A stretch of DNA of 64,000 nucleotides from Candidatus Omnitrophota bacterium (GTDB lineage Bacteria > Omnitrophota > Omnitrophia > Omnitrophales > Aquincolibacteriaceae). The notes under the pieces are model-generated. The model saw only the letters and a list, made by a program, of their open reading frames with translations, made no database searches and was not told the DNA's origin. Positions within the stretch are counted from its first letter, which is position 1; the number at the start of each line of letters is the position of its first letter. Location: positions 1-64,000 of the forward strand of contig JAZDJU010000040.1 in assembly GCA_043803685.1 (NCBI GenBank), in the 5' to 3' direction. Shown piece after piece: positions 1 to 51,052 of this stretch. The translations under genes and the position numbers were made by a program.

Positions 1-353
1 CTCCTTTGATGCTGTTCCTAATACAAGTATAGGTCTTTGCTAGGTGTAATGCAACTTTGTTTAACTAGCAAAAGAGTCTATTTTTCTGTTAGAAAGTCTT
101 TTGTATAGCAACTTATAACATTTTGAGAGATTTGATGAGAGAACCATTTTTGGCGGGAAGACCCTGAGAAAACATAGCAATGCTCTGAGTATGGCCATTG
201 CCACAGACTGCCCCATTTTTCTCAGTCTGTCTTTTCAGTTTGTCTCTGGCAAAGTCGCGTGGCGCATACTTCTGGATTATGGGCCTTGGAATTTTGTATA
301 CTTGTGCAGGTCGTCGGCATTGTTGTCGTTTCATTTTCAAATAAAGGAAGATC

Positions 354-2099
354 ATGGGCAGCCCTTCATTCTTAACCGAGATCCTTCTGGTTCTTTTGAT
401 GGCGACCGTGGTGGCCGTGATCTTCGAGAGGTTCCGTCTTCCCGCGATCCTCGGATTTCTTCTGACAGGCGTGATCATCGGTCCCCAGGGACTCGGCATT
501 CTTTCGAATAACGAACACATCCGGATGCTCGCGGAGCTCGGAGTCGTGCTTCTCATGCTTACGATCGGGTTGGAGTTCTCCTTTGAGCGGTTGCGCGGGA
601 TGCAGAATATCGCGGTGATCGGCGGGACCCTGCAGATCCTGATCTCGATCGGGGTTTCGATGGCCTTCGGCTGGTGGCGCGGCTGGAACTTTTATGAGAG
701 TTTCTTTCTGGGCTCGGTCATCGCGCTCAGCTCGACGGCGATCGTTCTTAAATATTTGATGGACCGCGGCGAGATCGATTCGCCGCACGGTCGTATCGCG
801 ATCGCGATCCTGATCTTTCAGGATCTCGCGGTCGTGCCGCTTATGATCTTTCTCTCGGCCTTCGGGCAGTCGATGGCTTCGGTGGGTCTGGCCCTCGGAC
901 TCGCGCTCCTTAAAACGGTTCTGCTTTTGGCCGGAGCTTTTGTTTTTTCCCGCTTTCTTCTCCCTCAGCTTCTCTATCGCGTGGCGGCGATCCGGAACCG
1001 CGAGATCTTCTTCCTTTTCTCGGTCGTGGTGTGTCTGGGGATGGCGTGGGGGAGCGGTGCGCTAGGGCTTTCCATGGCCATCGGCGCGCTTCTGGCAGGG
1101 TTCATGTTCGCGAACACCGGTTTTTCACACCAGCTGATCGGGGATATCATTCCGTTCCGTCACCTCTTTGTGAGCATTTTCTTTGTTTCGATCGGGCTTT
1201 TATTCGATGTTCATTTCTTCCTGACGCATCTCCCTCTCGTGCTTTCGGTGGTGGGGCTTGTTCTTTTCATCAACTTTTTCATCATGACGCTTTTGATCAT
1301 GGCCTTCGGGTTCCCGCCGCGTGTGGCCGTGATCACCGGGATCATCCTTTCGCAGATCGGGGAGTTCTCGTTCCTGTTGATCGAAATGGCACGCGGGTCG
1401 GGGCACATTACGCCCGAACTTTACCAGGTGCTTCTCTCGACGGCATTCATGACCATGCTCATGACGCCGCTTCTCTTTGCGGCGATCCCGTTTGTACTGA
1501 AGATCTTGAGCCGGTTCGTGATCTTCGGGGTGCCTCCCGCGAGTTGGACCAAACCAGACCGCGGGCTTTCTTCTCTCACCGGTCATGTGATCCTCTGCGG
1601 GTTCGGACCTACGGGGCGGGAACTGGCCCTGGCTTTTCAGGAGGAAAAAGTGCCGTTCGTGATCGTTGAAATGAATCCGGTCAGGATGCGCGAGGCCAAG
1701 AAGCTGCACATGAAAGCGATCTATGGAGACGCGTCCAATCAGGAGGTCCTGAAAAGGGTCGGTATCAGCCGTGCCCGGGCGGTTGTTGTCAGCTTTCCCG
1801 ACCCCCTTGGCATGAGCCAGATCATTCGCGTGGTGCAGGGACTGAATCCGGATGTGACCCTTGCGGTGCGGGCGCGTTACGAAGGACAGATGTCACAACT
1901 TTATGAGCTGGGAGCGGATGTCGTGGTCACCGAAGAGTGGGAGGCGGGCCAAGAATTGAGTCGTCTGGTTCTCGGGCAATTGGATATTCCCAAGGAGAGG
2001 ATCGAGCATCACCTGAGCCGGATCCGCTCGCGTAAAGAACTCGCGGTCGAAGAAGCGATCTTCCGGCGCATGGCGAAAACGGCTATCCCTGGTAAATGA
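354..2099 (+). CDS. CPA2-family (Kef-type) cation:proton antiporter with C-terminal TrkA-N (RCK) domain
   Basis: ~12 TM segments, LAELGVVLLMLTIGLEFS, ALSSTAIV, IFQDL, LSQIGEFSF; RCK motif HVILCGFGPTG...YGDAS. Confidence 0.92.
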   Translation: MGSPSFLTEILLVLLMATVVAVIFERFRLPAILGFLLTGVIIGPQGLGILSNNEHIRMLAELGVVLLMLTIGLEFSFERLRGMQNIAVIGGTLQILISIGVSMAFGWWRGWNFYESFFLGSVIALSSTAIVLKYLMDRGEIDSPHGRIAIAILIFQDLAVVPLMIFLSAFGQSMASVGLALGLALLKTVLLLAGAFVFSRFLLPQLLYRVAAIRNREIFFLFSVVVCLGMAWGSGALGLSMAIGALLAGFMFANTGFSHQLIGDIIPFRHLFVSIFFVSIGLLFDVHFFLTHLPLVLSVVGLVLFINFFIMTLLIMAFGFPPRVAVITGIILSQIGEFSFLLIEMARGSGHITPELYQVLLSTAFMTMLMTPLLFAAIPFVLKILSRFVIFGVPPASWTKPDRGLSSLTGHVILCGFGPTGRELALAFQEEKVPFVIVEMNPVRMREAKKLHMKAIYGDASNQEVLKRVGISRARAVVVSFPDPLGMSQIIRVVQGLNPDVTLAVRARYEGQMSQLYELGADVVVTEEWEAGQELSRLVLGQLDIPKERIEHHLSRIRSRKELAVEEAIFRRMAKTAIPGK

Positions 2100-2183
2100 T
2101 AAGTGATAGATTAAAGCGTTTTCAGTGTTCCATGCTTTCATTTTTTGGAGTCCGAGTGATTTTCTAACCTACGGAGGTTCTCT

Positions 2184-3083
2184 ATGAAGTGGTTGATGAA
2201 ACTGATCATGCTGATCGTTGTCGTGTTGGTCGTGTTAGTGCTTGCGCGCAATGTCGTGGTGAAAGCGGCCGCGGAGAGCGGCGTGCGGGCCGTCACGGGG
2301 ATGCCCCTCAGTATCGGGAAGTTCGACCTCAATTTGTCGAACACATTCGTGGATATCGAAGCCCTCGTGGTCAAAAACCCGACGGGTTTTCACGATACGG
2401 CACTGGTCGATATCCCCAAGATCCTCGTCGACTACAATCTTTCCGATATTCTCAAAGGGAACGTTCATCTTGAAAGTATCGAATTCGATATGAAACAGTT
2501 CACGGTCGTGAAGAACGAAAAGGGCGAGCTCAATCTGGACCGGTTGAAAGCGCTCCAGGGGACCCAGAAGGCGCCTACCCAGCCCCAAAAACAGGAAGAG
2601 CCGAAAGCTCCCGCCAAGCCCATGCCGATCCAGATCGATATGATGCGCCTGAAGATCGGCAAAGTCGTTTTTGTGGATTATTCCAGCGGCAAGCCTTCGA
2701 CCAAGGAATTCCGCATCAATCTCGATCAAAGCTATCAGAACATCACGGACCTCAATAGCGTGGTGCGTTTGATCGTCCTGAAGGCCATGATGAGTTCCGG
2801 GATCTCGAATCTTGTGAATTTCGATCTGGGAGGTCTTGAGGGAACCCTGACGGGAGCCTTCAGCGCTTCCACCCAACTGGCGGCCCAGGCTGCGGCAAAA
2901 AGTCTGGATACGCTTAAGACCGCCGCAACGAATCCAACCGCGATCCCGGGACAGGTCGGGGGTGTTCTTAAGGATACGACCGGCGCTGTCGGAAGTACCA
3001 CTAAGGAAGTGGCCGGTGGCGTTAAGACCGCCGCGAGCAGTCTTAAGAATAAACTAAAAATTTTCGGGAGTAGTAATTCTTGA
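2184..3083 (+). CDS. AsmA-family-like membrane-anchored protein
   Basis: N-terminal TM anchor, VVKNPTGF motif, NEKGELNL; low-complexity A/T/G C-terminal tail; SD GGAGG upstream. Confidence 0.7.
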   Translation: MKWLMKLIMLIVVVLVVLVLARNVVVKAAAESGVRAVTGMPLSIGKFDLNLSNTFVDIEALVVKNPTGFHDTALVDIPKILVDYNLSDILKGNVHLESIEFDMKQFTVVKNEKGELNLDRLKALQGTQKAPTQPQKQEEPKAPAKPMPIQIDMMRLKIGKVVFVDYSSGKPSTKEFRINLDQSYQNITDLNSVVRLIVLKAMMSSGISNLVNFDLGGLEGTLTGAFSASTQLAAQAAAKSLDTLKTAATNPTAIPGQVGGVLKDTTGAVGSTTKEVAGGVKTAASSLKNKLKIFGSSNS

Positions 3084-3117
3084 TCTCCTCCAAAGCTGAG
3101 GCGAAAGGGAACCTTTC

Positions 3118-4341
3118 GTGAGCCGAGAAGAAGAACTCAAGGTACTTCTTTCCATTACGCATCAGATCAATGAAGGTCTGACGGTCGAGGAAGTCCTGGA
3201 TTACGCCTACAAGACCCTGCAGGCCATCATTCCTTACGACCGGATCGGATTTTCCCTTCTGGAGGAGAACAATACGGTCCTGCGTTCCTATTGGGCCTGC
3301 TCAAAAATGTCAGAGGTTCGGATAGGGAAAAATTACTCCGCAGGGATGAAAGGTAGCAGTCTTGAAAAAGTCCTTCAAACGCAAGAGCCGCGTATCCTGA
3401 ACGATCTCGAGACTTATCTCAGGGACCATCCGGACTCGAAGTCCACGAGAGATATTGTGGCAGAGGGAATGCGTTCGAGTTTGACCTGCCCCCTGATCGT
3501 CTCCGGAAAGCCCATGGGGTTTCTCTTTTTTTCAAGTCAGAAGACGCATCAATATCAAAACGCGCACGTAGAACTTTTTCAGGAGATCGCGGAACAGCTT
3601 GCCATGACCCTTGAAAAAAGCCGGCTTTATGAACAGGTGGTCCGGTTCAACGATATGAAGAACAAGTTCCTCGGCATGGCGGCGCATGACCTTCGTAGCC
3701 CCATCGCGGTCATCAAAGGCTACGCGGATCTTTTCACAGAAGGTTTTTTGGGGACCCTGGATGCTTCCCAGAAAGAACCGATACGGGTCATGTCCGGGAT
3801 CTGCGACAGAATGCTTGTTTTGATCAATGATCTGTTGGACGTCAGCGCGATCGAATCGGGCCATTTGGCGATGGATATGCGGGAGGTGGATCTGGAGGGC
3901 TATTTGACGGAGGCCCACCGGAATAACGCGCTTATGGCCAAAGCGAAGTCGATCGAGCTCATGCTGGATGTTCCGAAGGCCCTTCCGAGGATCTGGATGG
4001 ATCCCAATCGCATCGATCAAGTGATCAATAATCTCATCGCCAATGCCATTAAATTTTCAGAACCGCGGAGCCGGATCGTTCTCCGGGCGGTGCTTGTAGA
4101 GCGCGCGGTCGCGATCTCGGTCATCGACCAGGGGCAGGGCATTCCCGACGAAGAGATCCCCAAGATGTTCCAGTATTTTGGGAAGACGAAGGTTCTGCCG
4201 ACCGGGGGCGAGAAAAGCACAGGGCTCGGGCTCGCGATCGCTAAGCGTTTGGTGGAAGCCCACCGCGGGAAGATCAGCGTTGAAAGCCAACCGGGCCAAG
4301 GATCCACCTTTACCTTCACACTTCCTCTGAAGCTCTCCTGA
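3118..4341 (+). CDS. GAF-domain sensor histidine kinase (cytoplasmic, orphan)
   Basis: GAF ([19 protein letters not shown]), H-box AAHDLRSP, N-box [10 protein letters not shown]1 DQGQGI, G2 GLGLAI. Confidence 0.93.
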
Positions 4342-4348
4342 GCTCCCG

Positions 4349-4897
4349 GTGAATTCCCTCAGTTTGGAGATCAAGGCGCGATGTTCCGATCCCGTTCGCA
4401 TCCGAAAGATCCTGCTTGCCTATGGCGCGTCCTTCAAGGGATTGGACCTTCAGACCGACACGTATTTTCGCATTCCTTCCGGTCGGTTGAAGCTGCGTGA
4501 GGGGAATATCGAGAACGCTCTCATCCATTACAAGCGTGTGAACCAAAAGGGTTCCAAACGCTGTGATTCCACGCTCGCAAAATGCGAGAACGGTAGAGCG
4601 CTAAAAAAGACGTTGGCTGCCGCGCTTGGGGTTTTGACTGTGGTGATCAAGAAGCGGGAGATCTATTTTCTCCGCAACGTGAAATTCCATATCGATCGAG
4701 TCAAACATCTCGGGAATTTTGTCGAGATCGAGGCCTTTGGCCGCAAGGGCGGGAGTGCGGTGAAGCTCAGGAAACAATGCAAGTTTTATAAGAAGTTGCT
4801 TGGCATCTCTTCGCGGGATCTGCTTGCCGATTCGTATAGTGATCAGCTGTTGAGACTAGAGACTACAGACCGGAGACAGAAGACCAAAAATAAGTGA
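4349..4897 (+). CDS. CYTH / class IV adenylate cyclase family protein
   Basis: EIKAR start, QTDTYF, LKLRE, KKREIY, IDRVKHLGNFVEIE, SYSD. Confidence 0.88.
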   Translation: MNSLSLEIKARCSDPVRIRKILLAYGASFKGLDLQTDTYFRIPSGRLKLREGNIENALIHYKRVNQKGSKRCDSTLAKCENGRALKKTLAAALGVLTVVIKKREIYFLRNVKFHIDRVKHLGNFVEIEAFGRKGGSAVKLRKQCKFYKKLLGISSRDLLADSYSDQLLRLETTDRRQKTKNK

Positions 4898-4917
4898 AAA
4901 GGTTTTTGCTGTAGTCT

Positions 4918-6015
4918 TTAGTCTGCGGTCTTCAGTCTGACAGGTTGCCGTCTGGCTCCCCACGTTCCCGGCTTAGTTTCAAAGACCCCGGCGCAAGCAG
5001 CGCCACAAGAGCCGCACGCGCCGTTTTCTTTCAAGTTCCACAAGGTTATTTCATAACCGTCCCGGCCGATCAGTTTTTTACCGCAGGCATGGCAAAAGGT
5101 CGTCTCGCCTTCAGGGTTCTCGACATTTCCGGTATAACAGTAATGAATACCGTTTGCGAGCGCGATCTCGCGGGCTTTTTGGAGTGTGGAGGCCGGTGTC
5201 GAGGGAAGCTCCGGAAGTTTATGAGCCGGGTGAAAAGCCGTGAAGTGGAGCGGGACGTCCGGCCCCAGATTTTCCACGATCCAGGATGTCAGAGCTTGAA
5301 GTTCCTTGCCGGAATCATTCAGGCCCGGGATGAGGAGTGTCGTGATCTCGAGCCAGACCCGGGTCTCCTTCTTCAGATAGAGAAGCGTTTCGAGGACAGG
5401 TTGCAGGGAACTGTCCGTGTATTTTTTGTAGAACTCTTCCGTGAACCCTTTCAAGTCCACGTTCGCGGCATCCATCCACGCGTAAAATTCCTTCCGGGGT
5501 TCGGCGAACACGTAGCCCGCCGTGACCGCCACGGTCTTGATCCCGAGTTTGCGGCATTCCTTAGCGGTGTCGATGGCATACTCGTGGAAAATATGCGGTT
5601 CGTTGTAAGTGAAGGCGACGCTCCGGCAACGGAGCTCCCGGGCGGTTTCTGCGATGCGCTCGGGCGAGGCGGCATCTGCGAGCGTATCCATTTCCCGGGA
5701 GTGGCTGATATCCGCGTTTTGGCAGAATTTGCAGCCCAGGTTGCATCCTGCGGTTCCGAAGGAGAGTACCGGAGTTCCCGGGATAAAGTGGAAGAGCGGT
5801 TTTTTCTCGATCGGGTCCACGCAGAACCCGCTCGAACGGCCGTAAGTCGTGAGTACGATCCGGCCGTCCTGGCAGGCTCTGACAAAACAGAACCCGCGCT
5901 GTCCTTCCGTGAGCTTGCAATGGCGGGGACAAAGATCACACTGGATTTTGCCACCTTCAAGCTTGTGCCAGTATTTTGTCGGAACGATCGGTCCCATAAG
6001 GCCCCTATTCTGCAC
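4918..6015 (-). CDS. amrS: AmmeMemoRadiSam system radical SAM enzyme
   Basis: CDLCPRHC N-terminus, DPIEKKPLFHF, CNLGCKFCQN radical SAM motif, FTYNEP. Confidence 0.93.
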   Translation of the reverse strand: MQNRGLMGPIVPTKYWHKLEGGKIQCDLCPRHCKLTEGQRGFCFVRACQDGRIVLTTYGRSSGFCVDPIEKKPLFHFIPGTPVLSFGTAGCNLGCKFCQNADISHSREMDTLADAASPERIAETARELRCRSVAFTYNEPHIFHEYAIDTAKECRKLGIKTVAVTAGYVFAEPRKEFYAWMDAANVDLKGFTEEFYKKYTDSSLQPVLETLLYLKKETRVWLEITTLLIPGLNDSGKELQALTSWIVENLGPDVPLHFTAFHPAHKLPELPSTPASTLQKAREIALANGIHYCYTGNVENPEGETTFCHACGKKLIGRDGYEITLWNLKENGACGSCGAACAGVFETKPGTWGARRQPVRLKTAD

Positions 6016-39279: not shown

Positions 39280-40710
39280 ATGAATACACCCCTGCACCAA
39301 CTGACAGTAAAAGAAGCGATTGAGTTCTGCCAAAAAGGCGGGGCCCGGGATCTCCTGCACGCCTTGACCGAACGGTCTCAAAAACTAAATCCCCGGGTAA
39401 ATGCTTTTTTGCGGATGGGTGCCTCTGACAGCAACTTGCCGCTTTCTGCTGAACGCTTACCGCTCTCCGGCGTTCCCATCTCTATTAAAGACAACATCTG
39501 TATCGACGGCGCGGAGGTGACTTGTGCTTCAAAGATCCTTGAAAAACACGTGCCGCCTTACGACGCGACCGTGATCACAAAACTTAAAAATGCCGGCGCA
39601 ACACTTTTCGGCCAGTGCAACATGGACGAGTTCGCGTTCGGTTCCTCCTGCGAAACCTCGGCGTTCGGCCCGTGCCGGAACCCGTGGGACCTCGAGCGTG
39701 TACCGGGCGGTTCAAGCGGCGGCTCCGCGGCCTCGGTCGCGGCGGACATGACGGTTGCGGCGCTCGGCTCCGACACCGGAGGCTCCATTCGTCAGCCCGC
39801 GGCTCTTTGCGGCATTGTCGGCGTGAAACCCACGTACGGGCGCGTGTCACGTTATGGACTCATTGCCTTCGGTTCAAGCTTTGACCAGATCGGTCCTCTT
39901 ACGAAGACCGTGGAGGACTCGGCTATTTTGTTGAATGTCCTGTGCGGCCACGACCCGAAGGACTCGACCTCGTCACCGGTGAAAGTTCCGGATTTTACGC
40001 AGGCGCTCACGCGCGACGTGAAGGGCCTGAGGATCGGCTTGCCGAAAGAGTATTTCATTGAAGGGATCGATCCTGAGATCGAGAAAAGCGTGCTCCAGGC
40101 CGCGGAAACTTATAAGAAGCTCGGCGCCGAGATCAAAACCATCAGTCTGCCGCACACGGAGCACTCAGTCGCGGTCTACTATATTGTGGCCGTCGCGGAG
40201 GCGAGCTCGAACCTCGGCCGCTTTGACGGCGTGGAGTACGGCCTTCGCGTGCCGTCGAAGGACCTGCGCGAAATGTATTTCGAGACCCGCGACCGGGGAT
40301 TCGGTCACGAAGCGAAGCGTCGCATTCTGCTCGGAACCTTTGTTCTCTCGGCGGGTTATTACGAGGCGTATTACCTGAAAGGGCAGAAGGTCCGCACGCT
40401 CATTCGCCAGGATTTCGAACAGGCGTTCAAAGAAGTGGACGTCATCCTTTCGCCGACGTCGCCCACCGCGGCGTTCAAGATCGGCGAAAAGGTCTCGGAT
40501 CCTATTGCCATGTACCTCTCGGATATTTTTACGATTCCCGCGAACCTGGCCGGGATTCCCGCGATGTCGGTGCCGTGCGGTTTCACCTCGGGCGGACTTC
40601 CCATCGGCATGCAGCTCATGGCTCGTCCGTTCGACGAGTCCACCATGCTCCGCGCCGCCCACGCCTTCGAGCAGGAAGCCGGAATCTATAAGCTCAAACC
40701 CAAATTGTAG
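39280..40710 (+). CDS. gatA: Asp/Glu-tRNA amidotransferase subunit A
   Basis: IKDN, NMDEF, PGGSSGGS, GSDTGGSIRQPA, SAGYYEAYY. Confidence 0.97.
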   Translation: MNTPLHQLTVKEAIEFCQKGGARDLLHALTERSQKLNPRVNAFLRMGASDSNLPLSAERLPLSGVPISIKDNICIDGAEVTCASKILEKHVPPYDATVITKLKNAGATLFGQCNMDEFAFGSSCETSAFGPCRNPWDLERVPGGSSGGSAASVAADMTVAALGSDTGGSIRQPAALCGIVGVKPTYGRVSRYGLIAFGSSFDQIGPLTKTVEDSAILLNVLCGHDPKDSTSSPVKVPDFTQALTRDVKGLRIGLPKEYFIEGIDPEIEKSVLQAAETYKKLGAEIKTISLPHTEHSVAVYYIVAVAEASSNLGRFDGVEYGLRVPSKDLREMYFETRDRGFGHEAKRRILLGTFVLSAGYYEAYYLKGQKVRTLIRQDFEQAFKEVDVILSPTSPTAAFKIGEKVSDPIAMYLSDIFTIPANLAGIPAMSVPCGFTSGGLPIGMQLMARPFDESTMLRAAHAFEQEAGIYKLKPKL

Positions 40711-40714
40711 GCGT

Positions 40715-40755
40715 TTGACAGGGTGGTTACTTGGTGCTACAATGTAGCTACATTG
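40715..40755 (+). promoter_or_regulatory. TA promoter with palindromic operator
   Basis: TTGACA-17-TACAAT; perfect palindrome CAATGTAGCTACATTG at 40740-40755. Confidence 0.75.
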
Positions 40756-40773: not shown

Positions 40774-41001
40774 ATGATAAAGCACCTAACGAGCCACGGA
40801 AACAGTCTCGCCTTGATTATCGAAAAACCGGTGTTGCAGCTTTTGCGCATTACTGCCAAGACTCCGCTGGAGGTCAACACCGACGGTCGTAGTCTCATTA
40901 TTTCGCCTGTGAATGACGATGCCAGGGAAAAGAAATTTAATGCCGTCATGGAAAAGATCCACAAGCAGTACGCGACCACTTTCAAGGCGCTTGCGGATTA
41001 A
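40774..41001 (+). CDS. AbrB/MazE-type antitoxin
   Basis: K.LT.HGNSLALII.K, LIISP, C-terminal Y...F.ALA. Confidence 0.88.
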   Translation: MIKHLTSHGNSLALIIEKPVLQLLRITAKTPLEVNTDGRSLIISPVNDDAREKKFNAVMEKIHKQYATTFKALAD

Positions 41002-41006
41002 TAGCT

Positions 41007-41456
41007 GTGAAGCGCAAAACTAAAAAAACAAAATTCTCCGTTCGCGAAGAGGGCGCTGTTTATAGGCCTTCTGCCCCTGTTTTTTTGACGCACGACGAGG
41101 TGTTGAAGCTACATGTCCGGCAAATTGAGCTTTTTGGCGGCACCGACGGCATTCGAGATATGGCGTTATTGCATTCGGCATTGGCTCAGCCAGAGGCGAG
41201 TTTTGGAGGACATTGGCTTCACAATGACATTTTTGAAATGGCCGCCGCTTATGCTTATCATATTTGCCAGAACCACCCGTTTTTTGATGGCAATAAGCGC
41301 ACAGCCCTTGACGCGGCCCTGATGTTCCTAGGCACGAACGGAATCTTGTTCAAAGATCCTAAAGAGATCTTTATTGGCGTGATGCTTTCGGTCGCGAGAG
41401 GGAAGATGGGTAAAAAAGAGCTGGCGCAGATTTTTCGCGATCTGCCCCGGGAATAG
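41007..41456 (+). CDS. doc: Doc/Fic family toxin
   Basis: FGG..GIRD..LL.SA, NHPFFDGNKRTA. Confidence 0.9.
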   Translation: MKRKTKKTKFSVREEGAVYRPSAPVFLTHDEVLKLHVRQIELFGGTDGIRDMALLHSALAQPEASFGGHWLHNDIFEMAAAYAYHICQNHPFFDGNKRTALDAALMFLGTNGILFKDPKEIFIGVMLSVARGKMGKKELAQIFRDLPRE

Positions 41457-41480: not shown

Positions 41481-42627
41481 GATTTTCCAGCGGGCTGGGA
41501 AATTGGGCAAGGGGGCGTAGATTTTTCCGGCGCCGGAAAAATTAGCAGCCAATTCATCGGCGGGCCGATGAATTGAGGCGAACAGAAGATTTATCGGACG
41601 TCCGACGAATTGAGGGGGCAAGGCCTCCCGGGTAGCTCGAGGCTTTATAGCTTAAAGGATATACAGCAAAACAGCCGCCAGCGGCTGAATTGACCAACCG
41701 TGCGGCGAAGTTGTTAAGCAGAATGTACGTAAAACAAATGGGGAGCTAACCCCTCCCCACCGGACGCCGTCCGGTTTTCTCGCATGCGGGAAAATTGGAG
41801 CACTGAATTCATCGGCGGGCCGATGAATTGAGGGGGCAAGGCTTCCCGGGTAGTTCGAGGCCTCATATCATATATGATATGAGGCAAAAACGGGCGCGGG
41901 CGACTGAATTGGCTGGTGAGATAATTCAAAATAATGAGAGAACCAAGGCGAGGTGGCGATATGCGTAGAATGACAGCGGGTCTGATCGCTTTTATGTTTC
42001 CGCTCATGTTGGGGACCACCTACATTGTCAGAGAGAATGGCAAAGAGGTAGGGACTTGGGTGGAGAAGGATGGAAGTGATGTTACTCGATATATCGACAA
42101 TACAGTGACCAAGACAGGATCGCAAGCTATCGCAGAGCAGCAGATTGTTACCTCCGGACGAGCTAAGGTCAGCGACGAGCAAGAGAGAATAGAAGGTGAA
42201 AAATACATGGAAAGGGAAGAGACCTTTGGTATTCGTGAGGGATTGACGCGAGCGCAACTTGAAAATATTTCCATGGAAAAAGGCCTGCTCCGAAAAACAA
42301 AATATTCAGATAATGATACTTCCACAGGGGAAGGATTTTGGATCTTTGAGTATGTGACAGAAACAAAACATTACAAGCACCTTTTTAAGGTCTATCTAGA
42401 ATCAAACTATTGGACGGTAAAGAAAGTTTTTCATAGCGTTGAAGAGCGGTGACAAATCCTGGCAGTGATTTAACCGGACGTGATTTTCAATTTTCCAGTG
42501 GGCTGAAGAATTTGTACTGAATTAGTCGGCGGGCCGACGAATTGAGGGGGCAAGGCCTCCCGGGCAGTTCGAGGCCTCATATCATATATGATATGAGGCG
42601 ATTTAGTCGCTGGCGACCAAATTGACC
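41481..42627 (+). repeat. three composite repeat units built from 24-bp RATT-N16-AATT hairpins and an 11-6-11 core
   Basis: colinear units 41588-41691, 41806-41910, 42520-42623; 11 fixed-length 24-bp elements in total. Confidence 0.85.
41961..42452 (+). CDS. hypothetical protein with N-terminal hydrophobic segment (AT-rich, repeat-flanked)
   Basis: SD GAGGTGG, open frame between repeat units 2 and 3. Confidence 0.65.
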   Translation: MRRMTAGLIAFMFPLMLGTTYIVRENGKEVGTWVEKDGSDVTRYIDNTVTKTGSQAIAEQQIVTSGRAKVSDEQERIEGEKYMEREETFGIREGLTRAQLENISMEKGLLRKTKYSDNDTSTGEGFWIFEYVTETKHYKHLFKVYLESNYWTVKKVFHSVEER

Positions 42628-42725
42628 AGGAAATTATAGGCCCGAGACTTCGGTAAAAGGAAATACGTAGGGCGTCCAGTGGCAGGCCGCCTACTTTTGA
42701 ACGCTAACACTGAGGAGAAAATCAG

Positions 42726-42908
42726 ATGAAAGAATATATTAATGGATTGGAGAAAGCGATAAACGACGAAAATGAACATCTTAACTTAATCAATCGATGT
42801 GAAAAAAAGGGGATACAAGGCTTTGATTATGAGGTGTTGCGTCGTCGAATTAAAGAGAACATATCCTTGTATCAAAGGTTGAAAAAACAAACAGAGAGCT
42901 CCTCTTAA
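42726..42908 (+). CDS. hypothetical small helical protein
   Basis: SD GAGGAG, 60 aa, AT-rich. Confidence 0.55.
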   Translation: MKEYINGLEKAINDENEHLNLINRCEKKGIQGFDYEVLRRRIKENISLYQRLKKQTESSS

Positions 42909-42916
42909 GGATCTTT

Positions 42917-43729
42917 ATGGGCTTATTTCTTTTTGATGCGTTTAAATGCTTTTACAGCGGGGGGGTTGGTCCATTTTCAGTTAGAACATTGCATGATATC
43001 AAATCCTCTCGCTGTTGTTTATGTGGAAGTAAGGTTTACCCAACCGAGCTATTGGGGAATGCATGGATAAAGCAAAATGATGAATATAAAATCTTATGCT
43101 ATCGATGCAGAGGGCTAGAAGGTAAATTTAATAGCGCAAAATTGAGTGGAGAAGTAGTCCTTTCAACAGCAAAAGTGGCGGCAGAAATTATTCGTTCAAG
43201 GTGCCATAAATGCAATCGCAAGATAGATGCAAACTCTGTTATTCAAGGAATAAGGTCAGGCGGCTCACATGTAACAGTGCATTGCGAAGAATGCCAGTTT
43301 TGGCCTTTTCCGAACTCAACGAGATTTAGTTGCGGAGAATGTGGAGCTTTGAACACACATCGCGACGAGGGCAGCTGGGAGGATGAGAAATGCTGGAGTT
43401 GCAATCTATCACATAAAGAGCAATGGTTTTATAACTTGCCTTGCGAAGATGAAACCATGTATCTAGAAAAAGAATGTCCCAATTGCGATAGAGAAAATCC
43501 TCAAAAAAATTGTTCCGTATGTAAGGGGGGTGGAATTTTAGTTGCGAGCCAAGAAATACCAGAATGGATTTCTTATCTAAAAAAGAAAAAAGGATATACG
43601 CAAAAGAATTTAGCGATATTGTTAGATGCTTCCGAGGATTTAATAAATGATATCATGGCCAAAAAAGCAAAACTAACGCATGGCCAACTTCAGAAGCTAT
43701 ACGTCGATATTGAGAAAGAATCTTCTTAA
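42917..43729 (+). CDS. multi-CxxC zinc-ribbon protein with C-terminal XRE-type HTH
   Basis: CLC, CYRC, CHKC, CEEC, CGEC, CWSC, CPNC, CSVC; LKKKKGYTQKNLAILLDAS. Confidence 0.65.
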   Translation: MGLFLFDAFKCFYSGGVGPFSVRTLHDIKSSRCCLCGSKVYPTELLGNAWIKQNDEYKILCYRCRGLEGKFNSAKLSGEVVLSTAKVAAEIIRSRCHKCNRKIDANSVIQGIRSGGSHVTVHCEECQFWPFPNSTRFSCGECGALNTHRDEGSWEDEKCWSCNLSHKEQWFYNLPCEDETMYLEKECPNCDRENPQKNCSVCKGGGILVASQEIPEWISYLKKKKGYTQKNLAILLDASEDLINDIMAKKAKLTHGQLQKLYVDIEKESS

Positions 43730-43825: not shown

Positions 43826-45319
43826 ATGAATTACGAACCTGTGATTGGACTTGAGGTCCACGTACAACTGAAGACGAAGAGCAAGCTCTTCTGCTCATGC
43901 TCCACGGAATTTGGGGCGGGGGGGAACGAGCATACGTGCCCGGTGTGTCTGGGGTGGCCGGGGTCGTTGCCGGTCTTAAACGAAGCGGCCTTGAAGCTCG
44001 GGATCCGCGTCGGGCTCGCGCTTAATTGCAAGGTGGCGGAGCGGCTCAAATTCGACCGGAAGAATTATTTCTATCCCGACCTTCCCAAGGCGTATCAGAT
44101 CTCGCAATTCGACATGCCGGTGAATGGCAAAGGTTTCCTCGATATCGAAACGCGAGCCAAGAGCCAAGGGCCACGGGCCACGAAGAACGAAGAACAAAAC
44201 GTGGGGCGTGGGTCGTGGGACGTGGAACGAAAGAGGATCGGTATCACTCGCGCGCACCTGGAAGAGGACGCGGGGAAGCTTCTCCATGAAGGCATCGCGG
44301 ACGGGAGCCTCGTGGATTACAACCGTGGCGGCATTCCGCTCCTCGAGATCGTTTCCGAGCCGGACCTTGGCAGTCCGCAGGAGGCCTATGATTACCTCAC
44401 GGCGCTCAAAGCCATTCTTCAATATCTGGAAGTGAGCGACTGCGATATGGAAAAGGGGAGCCTCCGCTGTGACGCGAACGTGTCGGTGCGCCCCGTGAGT
44501 CAGGCCAAGCTTGGCACGAAAGTCGAGATCAAGAATCTGAATTCCTTCAAGATGGTGCACAAAGCCATTCAGTATGAGATCGAACGCCAGACCGAGGCGC
44601 TCGAACGCGGGGAAACCATTGTTCAGGAAACGCGGCTCTGGAATGACGGGAAAGGCACGACCTTTTCCATGCGTTCCAAGGAAGAAGCGCACGATTACCG
44701 TTATTTCCCGGAGCCGGACCTTGTGCCGTTCACGCTCACGCGCGAAACCGTGGAAGAGATCCGCAAGACGCTGCCCGAGCTGCCGCTTGAGCGCGCGAAA
44801 CGGTTCATCAAAGAATTTGGCATTCCGGAATACGACGCCTACGTGCTCGTGCAGGAAAAGAAAGTCGCGGCCTATTTCGAATCGTGTGTGCGCGAAGGGG
44901 CCGCGGCAAAGTCCGCGAGCAATTGGATCCAAACCGAGCTTTTGGCGCTACTTAACGCGAAAAATATCGCGATCGACCAATGTCTGGTTTCACCGCACGC
45001 GCTCGCGGGACTCATTCGTCTTGTCGAGAAAGGGACGCTGAGCGGCAAGACCGCGAAGGATGTGCTTCAGGAAATGGCGGCGACGGGCAAGGCTGCGGAC
45101 ACAATCGTTCAGGAAAAAGGACTTACGCAGGTCTCGGACACGGGGTTGATCGAGAAAGCGGTCGAGAAGGCCATTGCCGCGAACCCGACCGCTGTCGCGG
45201 AATTCAAGGCCGGGAAGCAGAAGGCCCTCGGCGCGCTCGTCGGCGCGGTGATGAAAGAGACCGGCGGCAAGGCGAACCCGAAAATCGTGAATGAAATTTT
45301 GATGAAGAAGTTGTCCTAA
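43826..45319 (+). CDS. gatB: Asp/Glu-tRNA amidotransferase subunit B (with repeat-derived insertion)
   Basis: IGLEVHVQL, RKNYFYPDLPK.YQISQ, HLEEDAGK, RCDANVS, DYRYFPEPDL. Confidence 0.97.
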   Translation: MNYEPVIGLEVHVQLKTKSKLFCSCSTEFGAGGNEHTCPVCLGWPGSLPVLNEAALKLGIRVGLALNCKVAERLKFDRKNYFYPDLPKAYQISQFDMPVNGKGFLDIETRAKSQGPRATKNEEQNVGRGSWDVERKRIGITRAHLEEDAGKLLHEGIADGSLVDYNRGGIPLLEIVSEPDLGSPQEAYDYLTALKAILQYLEVSDCDMEKGSLRCDANVSVRPVSQAKLGTKVEIKNLNSFKMVHKAIQYEIERQTEALERGETIVQETRLWNDGKGTTFSMRSKEEAHDYRYFPEPDLVPFTLTRETVEEIRKTLPELPLERAKRFIKEFGIPEYDAYVLVQEKKVAAYFESCVREGAAAKSASNWIQTELLALLNAKNIAIDQCLVSPHALAGLIRLVEKGTLSGKTAKDVLQEMAATGKAADTIVQEKGLTQVSDTGLIEKAVEKAIAANPTAVAEFKAGKQKALGALVGAVMKETGGKANPKIVNEILMKKLS

Positions 45320-49932: not shown

Positions 49933-50169
49933 ATGTGGGTCTATGTTTTGGAAAGTCAAAAAGACAACCGTCATTACGTTGGCAGCGGTGAAGACGTCGA
50001 AGAAAGATTGCGGCGGCACAATTTAGGCGATTATCGCTATACTAAGGGTCATCGTCCGTGGATTGCGATTTACCGGGAGTTTTGCAAGTCTCGCTCGAAG
50101 GCTGTTAAGCGCGAACGGTTTTTGAAGTCAGGTGTCGGGCGAAAGTATTTGAAAACAGTTTTACAGTAG
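49933..50169 (+). CDS. small GIY-YIG nuclease family protein
   Basis: VYVL...YVGS..D.E.RL..HN.G..RYTK..RPW...E....S.A..RE..LKS. Confidence 0.93.
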   Translation: MWVYVLESQKDNRHYVGSGEDVEERLRRHNLGDYRYTKGHRPWIAIYREFCKSRSKAVKRERFLKSGVGRKYLKTVLQ

Positions 50170-50182
50170 CTTGATCAGTTAG

Positions 50183-50253
50183 TGCCCCGTGGTGAAATGG
50201 TATCACACTGCCCTTTGGAGGCAAGGTTCCTGGTTCGAGCCCAGGCGGGGCAG
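50183..50253 (+). tRNA. tRNA-Gln(TTG)
   Basis: cloverleaf: acceptor TGCCCCG/CGGGGCA, D arm GTGA/TCAC, loop CT-TTG-GA, T arm CCTGG-TTCGAGC-CCAGG; no encoded CCA. Confidence 0.92.
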
Positions 50254-50263
50254 ATTTGAGCAT

Positions 50264-50776
50264 ATGATGGAAAAATTAATGATAGAAATATTAGAAAAGT
50301 TTCAAGGCGCCTTTTTAGTTTTACTGAGCTCTCTGTTGAGTTTCCTGTTTGCGTTATGGGCATTCAATCATCAGGAAGCGAGAAGAGAAGGAAAAAACGA
50401 AAAAGATGTTTTAAAGAATTTTCTTAGCGAGATTAAATTAAATGAAATTCGTTGTGGAATGATGGTCGATTCCGAATCATTTAATTTATTCGATATCGAT
50501 GTTCTTAACAGGTTTAAGAATAGCGCGCAATTTTTGAGCAAAGCCATTGCCAAATATGTAATTTTCATTGGACTCGTTAATAATAGCGTTGCTGATTTTT
50601 TGGATTTCGAGCGATTTTATACTGGTGATGCAAAAAACGGGACTCAAGAAAACGAGAAAGCGTCGAATTCTAAAAGAATCAGACTGCTTGAAAGCCTGAA
50701 AAGTTTCCAAGAAACTTTGGCTATGGCTAAGGCTGATGTCGCGGCTATTTTAGAAAAGGGTAAGATGGGTAAATAA
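50264..50776 (+). CDS. hypothetical AT-rich protein with N-terminal TM
   Basis: open frame, TM then E...N motif; composition differs from host genes. Confidence 0.65.
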   Translation: MMEKLMIEILEKFQGAFLVLLSSLLSFLFALWAFNHQEARREGKNEKDVLKNFLSEIKLNEIRCGMMVDSESFNLFDIDVLNRFKNSAQFLSKAIAKYVIFIGLVNNSVADFLDFERFYTGDAKNGTQENEKASNSKRIRLLESLKSFQETLAMAKADVAAILEKGKMGK

Positions 50777-50778
50777 TT

Positions 50779-50888
50779 ACTGCCCTTTTCCGCCTGAGGC
50801 GGATTCGTCCGCGAGGCGAATCCCCCGATGGACGGATTCGCCTCTGGCGAAGGAGACAAGATTCCTGGTTCGAGTCCAGGCCGGGCAG
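50779..50888 (+). pseudogene. 3' part of tRNA-Gln with the same 63-bp anticodon insertion
   Basis: ACTGCCCTTT [50789-50851 insert] GGAGACAAGATT-CCTGG-TTCGAGT-CCAGG-CCGGGCA-G; acceptor strand pairs with 49819-49825. Confidence 0.85.
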
Positions 50889-51052
50889 TTGTTCTAGTGA
50901 ACAACTACTATGCCGTGAGAGTTCAGGGATAACTCTCTACGGCATGGCAGTTTTGCCAGTGCAAAACTACTACGCTGTGACGGCTCAATGAAAGCCGTCT
51001 ACCGCGTCGCCGTCTCTGTCGCAGTTTTGTAAATGAGGATGTCTGAACTTAC

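Follow-up and report, generated by a model that had tools for sequence, protein, structure and literature searches.

Palindromic 24-bp units between gatA and gatB of a Candidatus Omnitrophota genome match in-frame palindromes of DUF1016_N-SNase genes, predicted sites of ParB-like proteins

The gatA-gatB insert

The window, i.e. the whole 64-kb stretch of Candidatus Omnitrophota DNA (genome G000) analysed here, contains the genes gatA (39280..40710) and gatB (43826..45319) as left and right borders of a variable 3.1-kb insert of lower GC content. Besides an array of palindromic units, this insert contains three orphan ORFs and a toxin-antitoxin pair of the Doc type, and all of these genes are encoded on the plus strand. 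A sigma70-like promoter on the same strand (40715..40755, 11/12 matches) is overlapped by a perfect 16-bp palindrome, likely the toxin-antitoxin operator, and we infer that it would transcribe through the array toward gatB. The antitoxin gene (40774..41001; TIGR02609, below cut-off) is the partner of a Doc/Fic toxin gene (41007..41456). Of the orphan ORFs, the first (41934..42452, start likely at 41961) had one homolog besides itself when homologs of near length were sought. The second (42726..42908, 60 aa) belonged to no family, and the third (42917..43729) is Cys-rich, had no significant family match and appeared HTH-like by eye at its C-terminal end.

Three 108-bp direct repeats on the plus strand, block A (41589..41696) and the blocks B (41807..41914) and C (42521..42628) that lie upstream and downstream of the first orphan ORF, each consist of a unit, a G-rich linker, a palindrome of a second type and another unit, and account for part of the copy number of the units. 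The second-type palindromes are 26 bp long and AT-rich, imperfect at 41642..41667 and perfect and of the same sequence at 41860..41885 and 42574..42599. Such palindromes also flank three small XRE-like HTH genes of G000 on both sides (C117:15888/16149, C31:29833/30118 and C31:156485/156747). Since solitary copies lie in the blocks, operator-like sites from more than one protein family come together in the array. The names XRE, ORF6N, RhuM, KilA-N, trpB, glpD, ileS, ValRS and radical-SAM denote throughout what we take these genes to be from the appearance of their sequences.

Other dispersed repeats of the insert (41739-41775 and 42667-42694) comprise an element centred on GGACGCCGTCC, with about 20 genomic matches that are often at gene boundaries, and a GTAG-footed hairpin. 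G000 is rich in palindromic inserts within coding sequence, and in-frame REP-like insertions of other families were seen in gatB (approximately 44150-44260) and in SNase domains on contigs C31, C116 and C74. The window has a second low-GC stretch (50001-51000) at a tRNA-Gln gene (50183-50253).

Palindromic units of the array

A preliminary description had reported eleven 24-bp elements at 41481..42623 with fixed ends and variable, self-complementary interiors, and we found all eleven as described. Each ends in AATT, and the start tetramers are GATT and AATT (four units each), AAAA (two) and GGTT (one). At least six of the eight possible inner Watson-Crick pairs are formed in nine of the eleven units (6, 8, 7, 6, 7, 7, 7, 5, 4, 6 and 6 pairs in order), compared with an average of 2.0 in other 16-mers. 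Ten of the units are distinct, as those starting at 41551 and 41806 are identical.

Whether the pattern exceeds background depended on palindromy. Bare RATT-N16-AATY was not enriched across the window (11 occurrences, 8 of them inside the array stretch, versus 9.2 expected), whereas palindromic RATT-N16-AATT with at least 6/8 inner pairs occurred at 21 sites genome-wide versus 1.0 expected from ten hexamer-block shuffles, none of which gave more than two sites. Seven of the 21 sites are in the 1.1-kb array, seven in DUF1016_N genes and seven elsewhere. The excess was specific to a spacing of 16; spacings of 12, 14, 18 and 20 gave 11, 4, 2 and 0 sites versus 6.2, 2.2, 0.5 and 0.1 expected. When the complete array was folded as ssDNA, the pairings were mixed. 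Two DNA sequencing runs in which the genome has a small share left the array uncovered, and no RNA run was listed. Rfam and ARAGORN found no match in the array region, and the only Rfam match in the 64-kb window was one tRNA.

In-frame palindromes of DUF1016_N-SNase genes

G000 has 13 DUF1016_N matches at E<=0.1, and seven intact short-type genes plus one broken gene carry the 24-mer in frame, where it encodes I-x5-K/E-L directly before S/T-W (the L-S/T-W motif). The 16-bp core of the 24-mer differs between paralogs. A Pfam scan identified DUF1016_N and SNase only in three of three proteins, and all three SNase motifs were present in 30/50 proteins, with many of the others cut by locus ends. 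DUF1016_N further matches the PADLOC defence candidate PDC-S02.

For a larger gene set, 60 short-type loci from the genus were combined with the eight from G000; 53 records were parsed, leaving 15/68 loci unparsed. At least six inner pairs were formed in 49 of 51 distinct gene cores. The mean of 7.02 pairs compares with 3.85 after synonymous codon resampling that preserved the protein and with 2.0 for other 16-mers of the same genes. Core palindromy is hence constrained at the DNA level, beyond codon need. A search with the protein motif, in which the core was given as N, returned at least 120 metagenome loci, and the core was palindromic in 98 of the 108 distinct records listed, false matches included. 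Classic YhcG genes carry a longer, odd-centred palindrome in frame at the same spot.

In the broken gene (C85:14100-14432), a deletion joins the helix to the palindrome, which is itself intact and followed by a stop. ORF6N-like genes of G000 (C31:157651, C31:32403, C31:149976 and C79:7483) have in-frame palindromes of 25-27 bp at their variable segment.

A predicted ParB-like reader and its residue-to-base code

The modelled domain (pLDDT 88.8) starts with one long helix and contains an HTH, followed by the loop encoded by the palindrome and a short helix. When solved structures were searched with a profile, the only matches were Spo0J, ParB and Noc (best Spo0J 6SDK, E=0.011). Foldseek ranked ParB and Noc first, with none at E<=0.001. 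VIA-align scored ParB-parS 6S6H highest (Z 9.0, rmsd 3.3, 104 aligned), followed by Spo0J (7.6), Raf1 (7.2) and KorB (6.7-6.8); these scores are modest, as Z 9.0 is below the approximately 13 advised for helical bundles. A homodimer via the long first helix was predicted with a score of 0.81 versus 0.00 for the best control (pLDDT 86, 100% contact agreement between runs), and the mark for a dimer was reached by 20/30 solved pairs and 1/23 single chains. The N-terminal CTPase domain of ParB was not found by Pfam in the three proteins scanned, and no ParA was recognised by eye among the ORFs neighbouring eight DUF1016_N genes. By a crude hydropathy rule, 32/53 proteins, and 6/7 in G000, have a signal-like N-terminus, and these signal-class proteins form one close clade. 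A conserved internal GTG start that would give a cytoplasmic form was not found (6/40 only).

Covariation between protein and core was analysed in 131 records, after removal of those that had fewer than five inner pairs, contained stops, offered too little context or were in another register (6 loci). Residues are numbered as u (before) or d (after) relative to the Leu of L-S-W, and bases by their position in the 24-mer. Mutual information linked u-22, u-18, u-21 and u-17 to bases 5, 6, 7 and 8, and d6, d7 and d3 to bases 9, 10 and 11, respectively, equally on both arms and at wobble positions. Arg at u-21 occurred with G in 47/48 half-sites and Tyr at u-17 with C in 93/96. In 61 disjoint nearest-neighbour pairs, co-change was strongest for u-18/base 6 (p=1.5e-7) and d6/base 9 (p=9e-6), the only two of 392 pair tests to pass Bonferroni correction; p values ranged from 2e-4 to 3e-3 for u-17/8 (p=2e-4), u-21/7, u-22/5 and d3/11. 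Leave-cluster-out prediction backed u-18, u-17 and d3, whereas u-22 failed for base 5, and at bases 7, 9 and 10 the code residue was equalled or surpassed by other residues.

In the profile alignment u-22 corresponds to R173 and d3 to G201 of ParB, and they are paired here with core bases 1 and 7. According to the accessible part of the published ParB work, R173 bonds to parS base 1 and residue 201 faces base 6 of the 16-bp site (PMC7383237). Because the separate pairing with outer and inner bases goes beyond whole-arm linkage, we infer that each protein binds the core of its own gene, while the covariation could in part be intramolecular, as the core is also protein-coding. Judged from the sequence covariation and the modelled fold, the 24-bp units are very probably binding sites of the DUF1016_N-SNase proteins themselves.

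The preliminary description had suggested a dimeric protein reading the AATT ends. A dimeric reader agrees with our predictions, which name a candidate, while the ends do not appear to carry the specificity. On sequence evidence this is assigned to the variable 16-bp interior, because the source gene uses the ends as codons for Ile and Lys/Glu-Leu and because glpD of three relatives has the inner 16 bp without AATT-type ends.

Array units as probable copies of gene cores

With a matrix built only from eight gene cores, the array units at 41481, 41773, 42489 and 41520 ranked 6, 8, 16 and 34 of 2.88 million positions, and the other seven window units ranked 118-4980. Several units reproduce known cores. 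Unit 1 (41481..41504, minus strand) has the inner 16 bp of the C74 DUF1016_N-SNase gene of G000, including an off-centre mismatch (23/24 overall), and unit 4 (41588..41611, plus strand) equals a gene core of relative G012 at 24/24 positions, including two off-centre mismatches. The inner 16 bp of unit 3 (41551..41574) and of unit 7 (41806..41829), both on the minus strand, are those of a gene core of relative G018. Two mismatches separate unit 6 (41773..41796) from the C116 core of G000, unit 10 (42520..42543) from a G018 core and unit 2 (41520..41543), whose inner palindrome is perfect, from the nearest known gene core. Unit 5 (41668..41691, plus strand), three mismatches from a G016 core, has the AAAA start of the P-K gene subclass. 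Unit 11 (42600..42623, 6/8 pairs) is four mismatches from the nearest known core, and unit 8 (41887..41910, 5/8 pairs) and unit 9 (42489..42512, 4/8 pairs) are decayed.

Among array units generally, 23/48 lay within one mismatch of a gene core, compared with 2.6% of palindromes drawn from the matrix. Against 129 cores, 21/46 units matched, two probable false units included (null 5%; core-to-core match 29%). Matches to genes of the same genome also exceeded expectation, with 9/41 units versus 2.2 expected (p=0.0003) and, in a separate set of nine genomes, 4/39 versus 0.40. No resident gene partner within one mismatch was found for 67/80 units in assemblies that are incomplete and have some genes unparsed (locus L230, with its single DUF1016_N core unrecovered, was left out). 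Four of 20 units with off-centre mismatches reproduced a gene core exactly, which argues for copying, since a symmetric binding preference would not create such mismatches. Nineteen of the 20 matched units matched signal-class genes, a class that makes up 31/50 cores. The asymmetric units are oriented antisense in 17 cases and sense in three. Homology of units to genes in the flanks is short and mainly one-sided, and homologous spacers enclose different cores in different genomes. Spacers of 7 bp (10/23) correspond to a 31-bp period, i.e. three helical turns; these are partly homologous and so not independent.

We compared the gatA-gatB gap in 20 of the 61 relatives with a gatB match, in 19 of them with both ends. 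Gap length ranged from 0 to 3.1 kb across these 19, and the cargo was varied and co-oriented. Arrays of 2-7 units were present in 9/19, two of these without cargo genes, while the remaining relatives had cargo without units (6) or an essentially empty gap (4). Within this essential operon the gap is a hotspot for cargo: the gaps of G004, G052, G002, G018, G009 and G016 (L084-L098) contain RhuM-Fic-like, CDGSH-like and Doc modules and two small genes of no known family (about 71 and 77 aa) that recur as a pair.

Arrays also occur at other loci and in other genera. Strict-pattern arrays were found in 12/401 genomes of the phylum versus 0 for a control pattern, although two or three of these matches are palindromic only in part. 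Named array records are mostly Candidatus Omnitrophota, and some are named Marinamargulisbacteria or Opitutaceae; the L205 array was not counted as outside the phylum, as the same array is among the same-phylum matches. The tandem pattern over all genomes was mostly chance, with at least two palindromic units in 14 of 123 listed loci, some of which are other families. Some arrays have a 20-bp period in which neighbours share AATT (L069:1501-1564, L214:2960-3003 and L232:215-258), as would be expected from target duplication or a staggered cut at AATT; the three units of L069 have a common centre and differing outer arms. The most CRISPR-like case, L074:1345-1700 (G056), has eight different units, the last five at a period of about 35 bp. 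A solitary intergenic unit of G000 (C31:128991) equals a G012 gene core and has gene-like flanks on both sides. The units at L218:612-2215 border an ORF6N-like gene and an ORF whose N-terminus is RAYT-like, and one of these units equals a resident gene core. Arrays of AATT-ended palindromes with another core type lie beside KilA-N-like genes at L177:1500-2050 and L251 (Saprospiraceae record) and may reflect the same process acting with a different domain.

Cores within conserved genes

Four solitary units of G000 lie in conserved genes (trpB, a radical-SAM gene, ileS and glpD). At the trpB position most relatives have a non-palindromic I-x5-R-L stretch, and G000, G003 and G018/G012 have three different cores of the same length as the native stretch, which differ from known gene cores by 2, 0 and 1 mismatches, respectively. 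Where the unit is present or absent on the trpB tree can be explained by two changes. Cores are also present in the radical-SAM gene of G000, G015 (an exact match) and G018. G000 and G005 share the ileS unit, which recurs in an array of another family. In glpD, the core of G000 is in a shifted frame with most residues changed, and three relatives have a different inner core with native ends. At these positions, picked because G000 has a unit there, 10/64 alignments of relatives also had a unit, versus 0/36,515 other positions (two gapped alignments were skipped); the ileS count of 5 takes in looser ends and one unit shared with G000. In ValRS of G012, two units lie in an in-frame patch that is 10 codons longer than in G000. 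Some overwritten sites, namely the radical-SAM gene with a series of 5, 7 and 8 pairs and glpD of G004, G005 and G007, look as if a native quasi-palindrome had been perfected step by step. These series, the choice of positions on G000 and the two changes on the trpB tree count against the copying of whole cores.

Proposed mechanism

We propose four steps. Each short-type DUF1016_N gene, mostly fused to SNase, carries an in-frame 24-bp palindrome. In all likelihood, a ParB/Noc/KorB-type HTH dimer binds the core, so that the gene would encode both reader and site; positions of the recognition helix would read core bases 1-4 and the helix after L-S-W bases 5-7. Comparison among relatives further suggests, with good confidence, that cores are copied as short patches elsewhere into the chromosome. 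They would replace stretches of equal length whose ends or centre are already unit-like. Since existing units would be the best recipients, arrays would grow by duplication and swap cores within conserved spacer scaffolds.

The fourth step is the weakest. Copying might be driven by the proteins, which mostly have a putative export signal and might meet DNA at the envelope, where binding and SNase trimming would favour survival and uptake of site-bearing fragments and their subsequent recombination. ComEC and DprA are present in the genome, which fits an envelope route. This would be a molecular drive akin to uptake sequences with many specificities, and the array would represent a library of the specificities once present in the lineage and, in a secondary role, a platform on which recombination adds or removes cargo. 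From sequence and models, a drive in which exported dimers bind and trim sites and short site-bearing pieces recombine in appears plausible yet slightly doubtful. It is a point against this drive that targeting by a nuclease usually favours losing the site over gaining it. The full proposal is more tentative still: exported, self-targeting DNA-binding nucleases with a readable code may spread their 16-24-bp sites through the chromosome, altering codons in essential genes and building a record in the array.

Alternative explanations

The array might instead be a cytoplasmic docking or decoy platform, on which DUF1016_N proteins, whether resident or incoming, and XRE-like HTH proteins regulate or roadblock transcription of cargo and of gatB, an essential gene, or are titrated; titration would make the array a sensor of incoming mobile genes. 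This explanation shares the reader-site identification with the drive model. The fixed place of the array in the gap of nine of 19 relatives, twice without a cargo gene, the 31-bp period, the above-chance matches to genes of the same genome, the operator-like second-type palindromes within the blocks and the PDC-S02 match all fit. We nevertheless consider it rather unlikely, as most units had no resident partner in the incomplete assemblies, matched genes mainly encode exported-looking proteins, the array is absent in 10/19 relatives, the 7-bp spacers are partly homologous, and a regulatory value of overwritten housekeeping codons is not evident.

Still less probably, the units are selfish hairpins of the REP type whose mobility depends on a Y1 (RAYT) transposase or on template switching at hairpins, with DUF1016_N genes as only one source or sink. 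G000 has three Y1_Tnp genes and many other palindrome families, and the L218 units flank an ORF that resembles RAYT by a motif. Intermediate palindromy at overwritten sites and the length-changing ValRS patch of G012 would also agree. Against this, no 24-bp unit lay within 1.5 kb of the three Y1_Tnp matches of G000 (0 units at 3/3 loci), coding cases are mostly same-length replacements, and the residue-base covariation would be unexplained. REP elements have one conserved sequence with a GTAG- or CGTC-type foot and flank a RAYT gene. No single sequence is common to the units, which have variable cores between RATT and AATT ends. They resemble REP/BIME and Rickettsia palindromic elements in forming palindromes in intergenic clusters and in frame in genes. 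Rickettsia elements are insertions of 100-150 nt, according to the accessible part of PMC4316617, whereas the units have 24 bp, mostly replace a stretch of the same length and lie apart from Y1_Tnp loci.

As a silent donor library, the array would return new cores to DUF1016_N genes and so diversify the loop or the site. The units coincide exactly with the variable part of the genes and occur in either orientation, and cores turn over within homologous scaffolds. Nevertheless, a change of core goes along with changes in helix residues that lie outside the unit, a base-6 change without one at u-18 was seen in only 5/34 pairs, and homology to gene flanks is short and one-sided, making this explanation very unlikely.

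The preliminary description had further considered a role as accessory or arm sites. In favour of recombinase sites, such as attC-like ones that delimit cassettes, are the variable, co-oriented cargo of the gatA-gatB gap and an orphan ORF flanked by direct repeats. The suggestion was not supported: the integron rule of one site per cassette fails, as six relatives have cargo without units and two have units without cargo, the insert encodes no integrase, the three best of ten tyrosine-recombinase matches in G000 read as XerC/XerD by eye, and the DUF1016_N origin of units would be unexplained, so that such a role is highly improbable. RNA hairpins, acting as mRNA stabilisers or as antisense or decoy RNAs against DUF1016_N mRNAs, can hardly account for the array either, for despite its position downstream of a strong promoter and the antisense bias, self-paired hairpins make poor antisense agents, Rfam gave no match, the fixed 16-bp geometry and the residue-base code point to duplex DNA, and an ssDNA or RNA hairpin role leaves the covariation unexplained.

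Comparison with known systems

The HTH fold modelled here and the predicted two-fold binding of a 16-bp palindrome resemble ParB-parS, Noc-NBS and KorB-OB (PDB 6S6H, 6SDK, 6Y93 and 1R71). In such systems parS is often found within or close to parB. The likeness extends to specificity at the positions equivalent to R173 and G201, within what is accessible of PMC7383237. In contrast to ParB, no CTPase domain was detected in the DUF1016_N proteins, SNase is fused and N-termini are mostly signal-like; genomes encode many paralogs, each with its own site, and sites occur in mixed arrays and over other genes. The predicted recognition is ParB-parS-like, but with no CTPase domain found in the three proteins scanned this is not a parABS system.

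Uptake sequences (USS/DUS) have an extracytoplasmic, sequence-specific reader. They accumulate in coding regions and alter peptides at poorly conserved residues, as stated in the accessible text of PMC2817400, and here too sites in coding sequence alter peptides and competence genes are present. USS/DUS are one motif in hundreds to thousands of copies, whereas here there are about 21 strict sites with many cores, each core traced to the gene of its putative reader and apparently copied en bloc. CRISPR arrays have constant repeats and unique spacers of about 30 bp. The present array likewise looks like a record of sequences whose source genes circulate in the lineage, but the variable part is the palindrome, spacers are 7-22 bp and there is no constant repeat; cas1 was not found in the 91% complete assembly of G000.

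With YhcG/DUF1016 (PDC-S02), the genes share the DUF1016_N domain and, as far as PMC4316617 and PMC9881135 are accessible, a mobile gene of the defence-island type, with SNase here and PD-(D/E)XK there. The accessible parts of both reports describe DUF1016 only as a mobile, predicted nuclease and mention no palindromes, ParB-type fold or arrays (PMC4316617, PMC9881135). A full-text literature search, whose coverage stopped short of most subscription papers and supplements, found neither palindromes in DUF1016 genes nor such arrays. The reader-site pair alone is a variant of ParB-parS, and the arrays and the overwriting fit no system that was tested or found.

Implications

DUF1016_N/YhcG is a widespread domain without assigned function and a defence candidate. 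The present analysis proposes its fold, predicts what each protein binds and offers a code open to testing, by which the site of each DUF1016_N protein could be read from its gene. With more than 100 putative natural reader-site pairs, the evolution of protein-DNA specificity, studied so far on one ParB/Noc switch, could be tested directly; the pairs would also represent a source of orthogonal DNA-binding parts. The presence of mobile-gene sites in arrays and over codons of trpB, ileS and glpD points to an undescribed short-patch writing process. If true, these lineages would keep a heritable, Cas-less palindrome record of the specificities that they have met, and well over a hundred orthogonal ParB-type pairs would be available together with a new route of targeted short-patch genome change.
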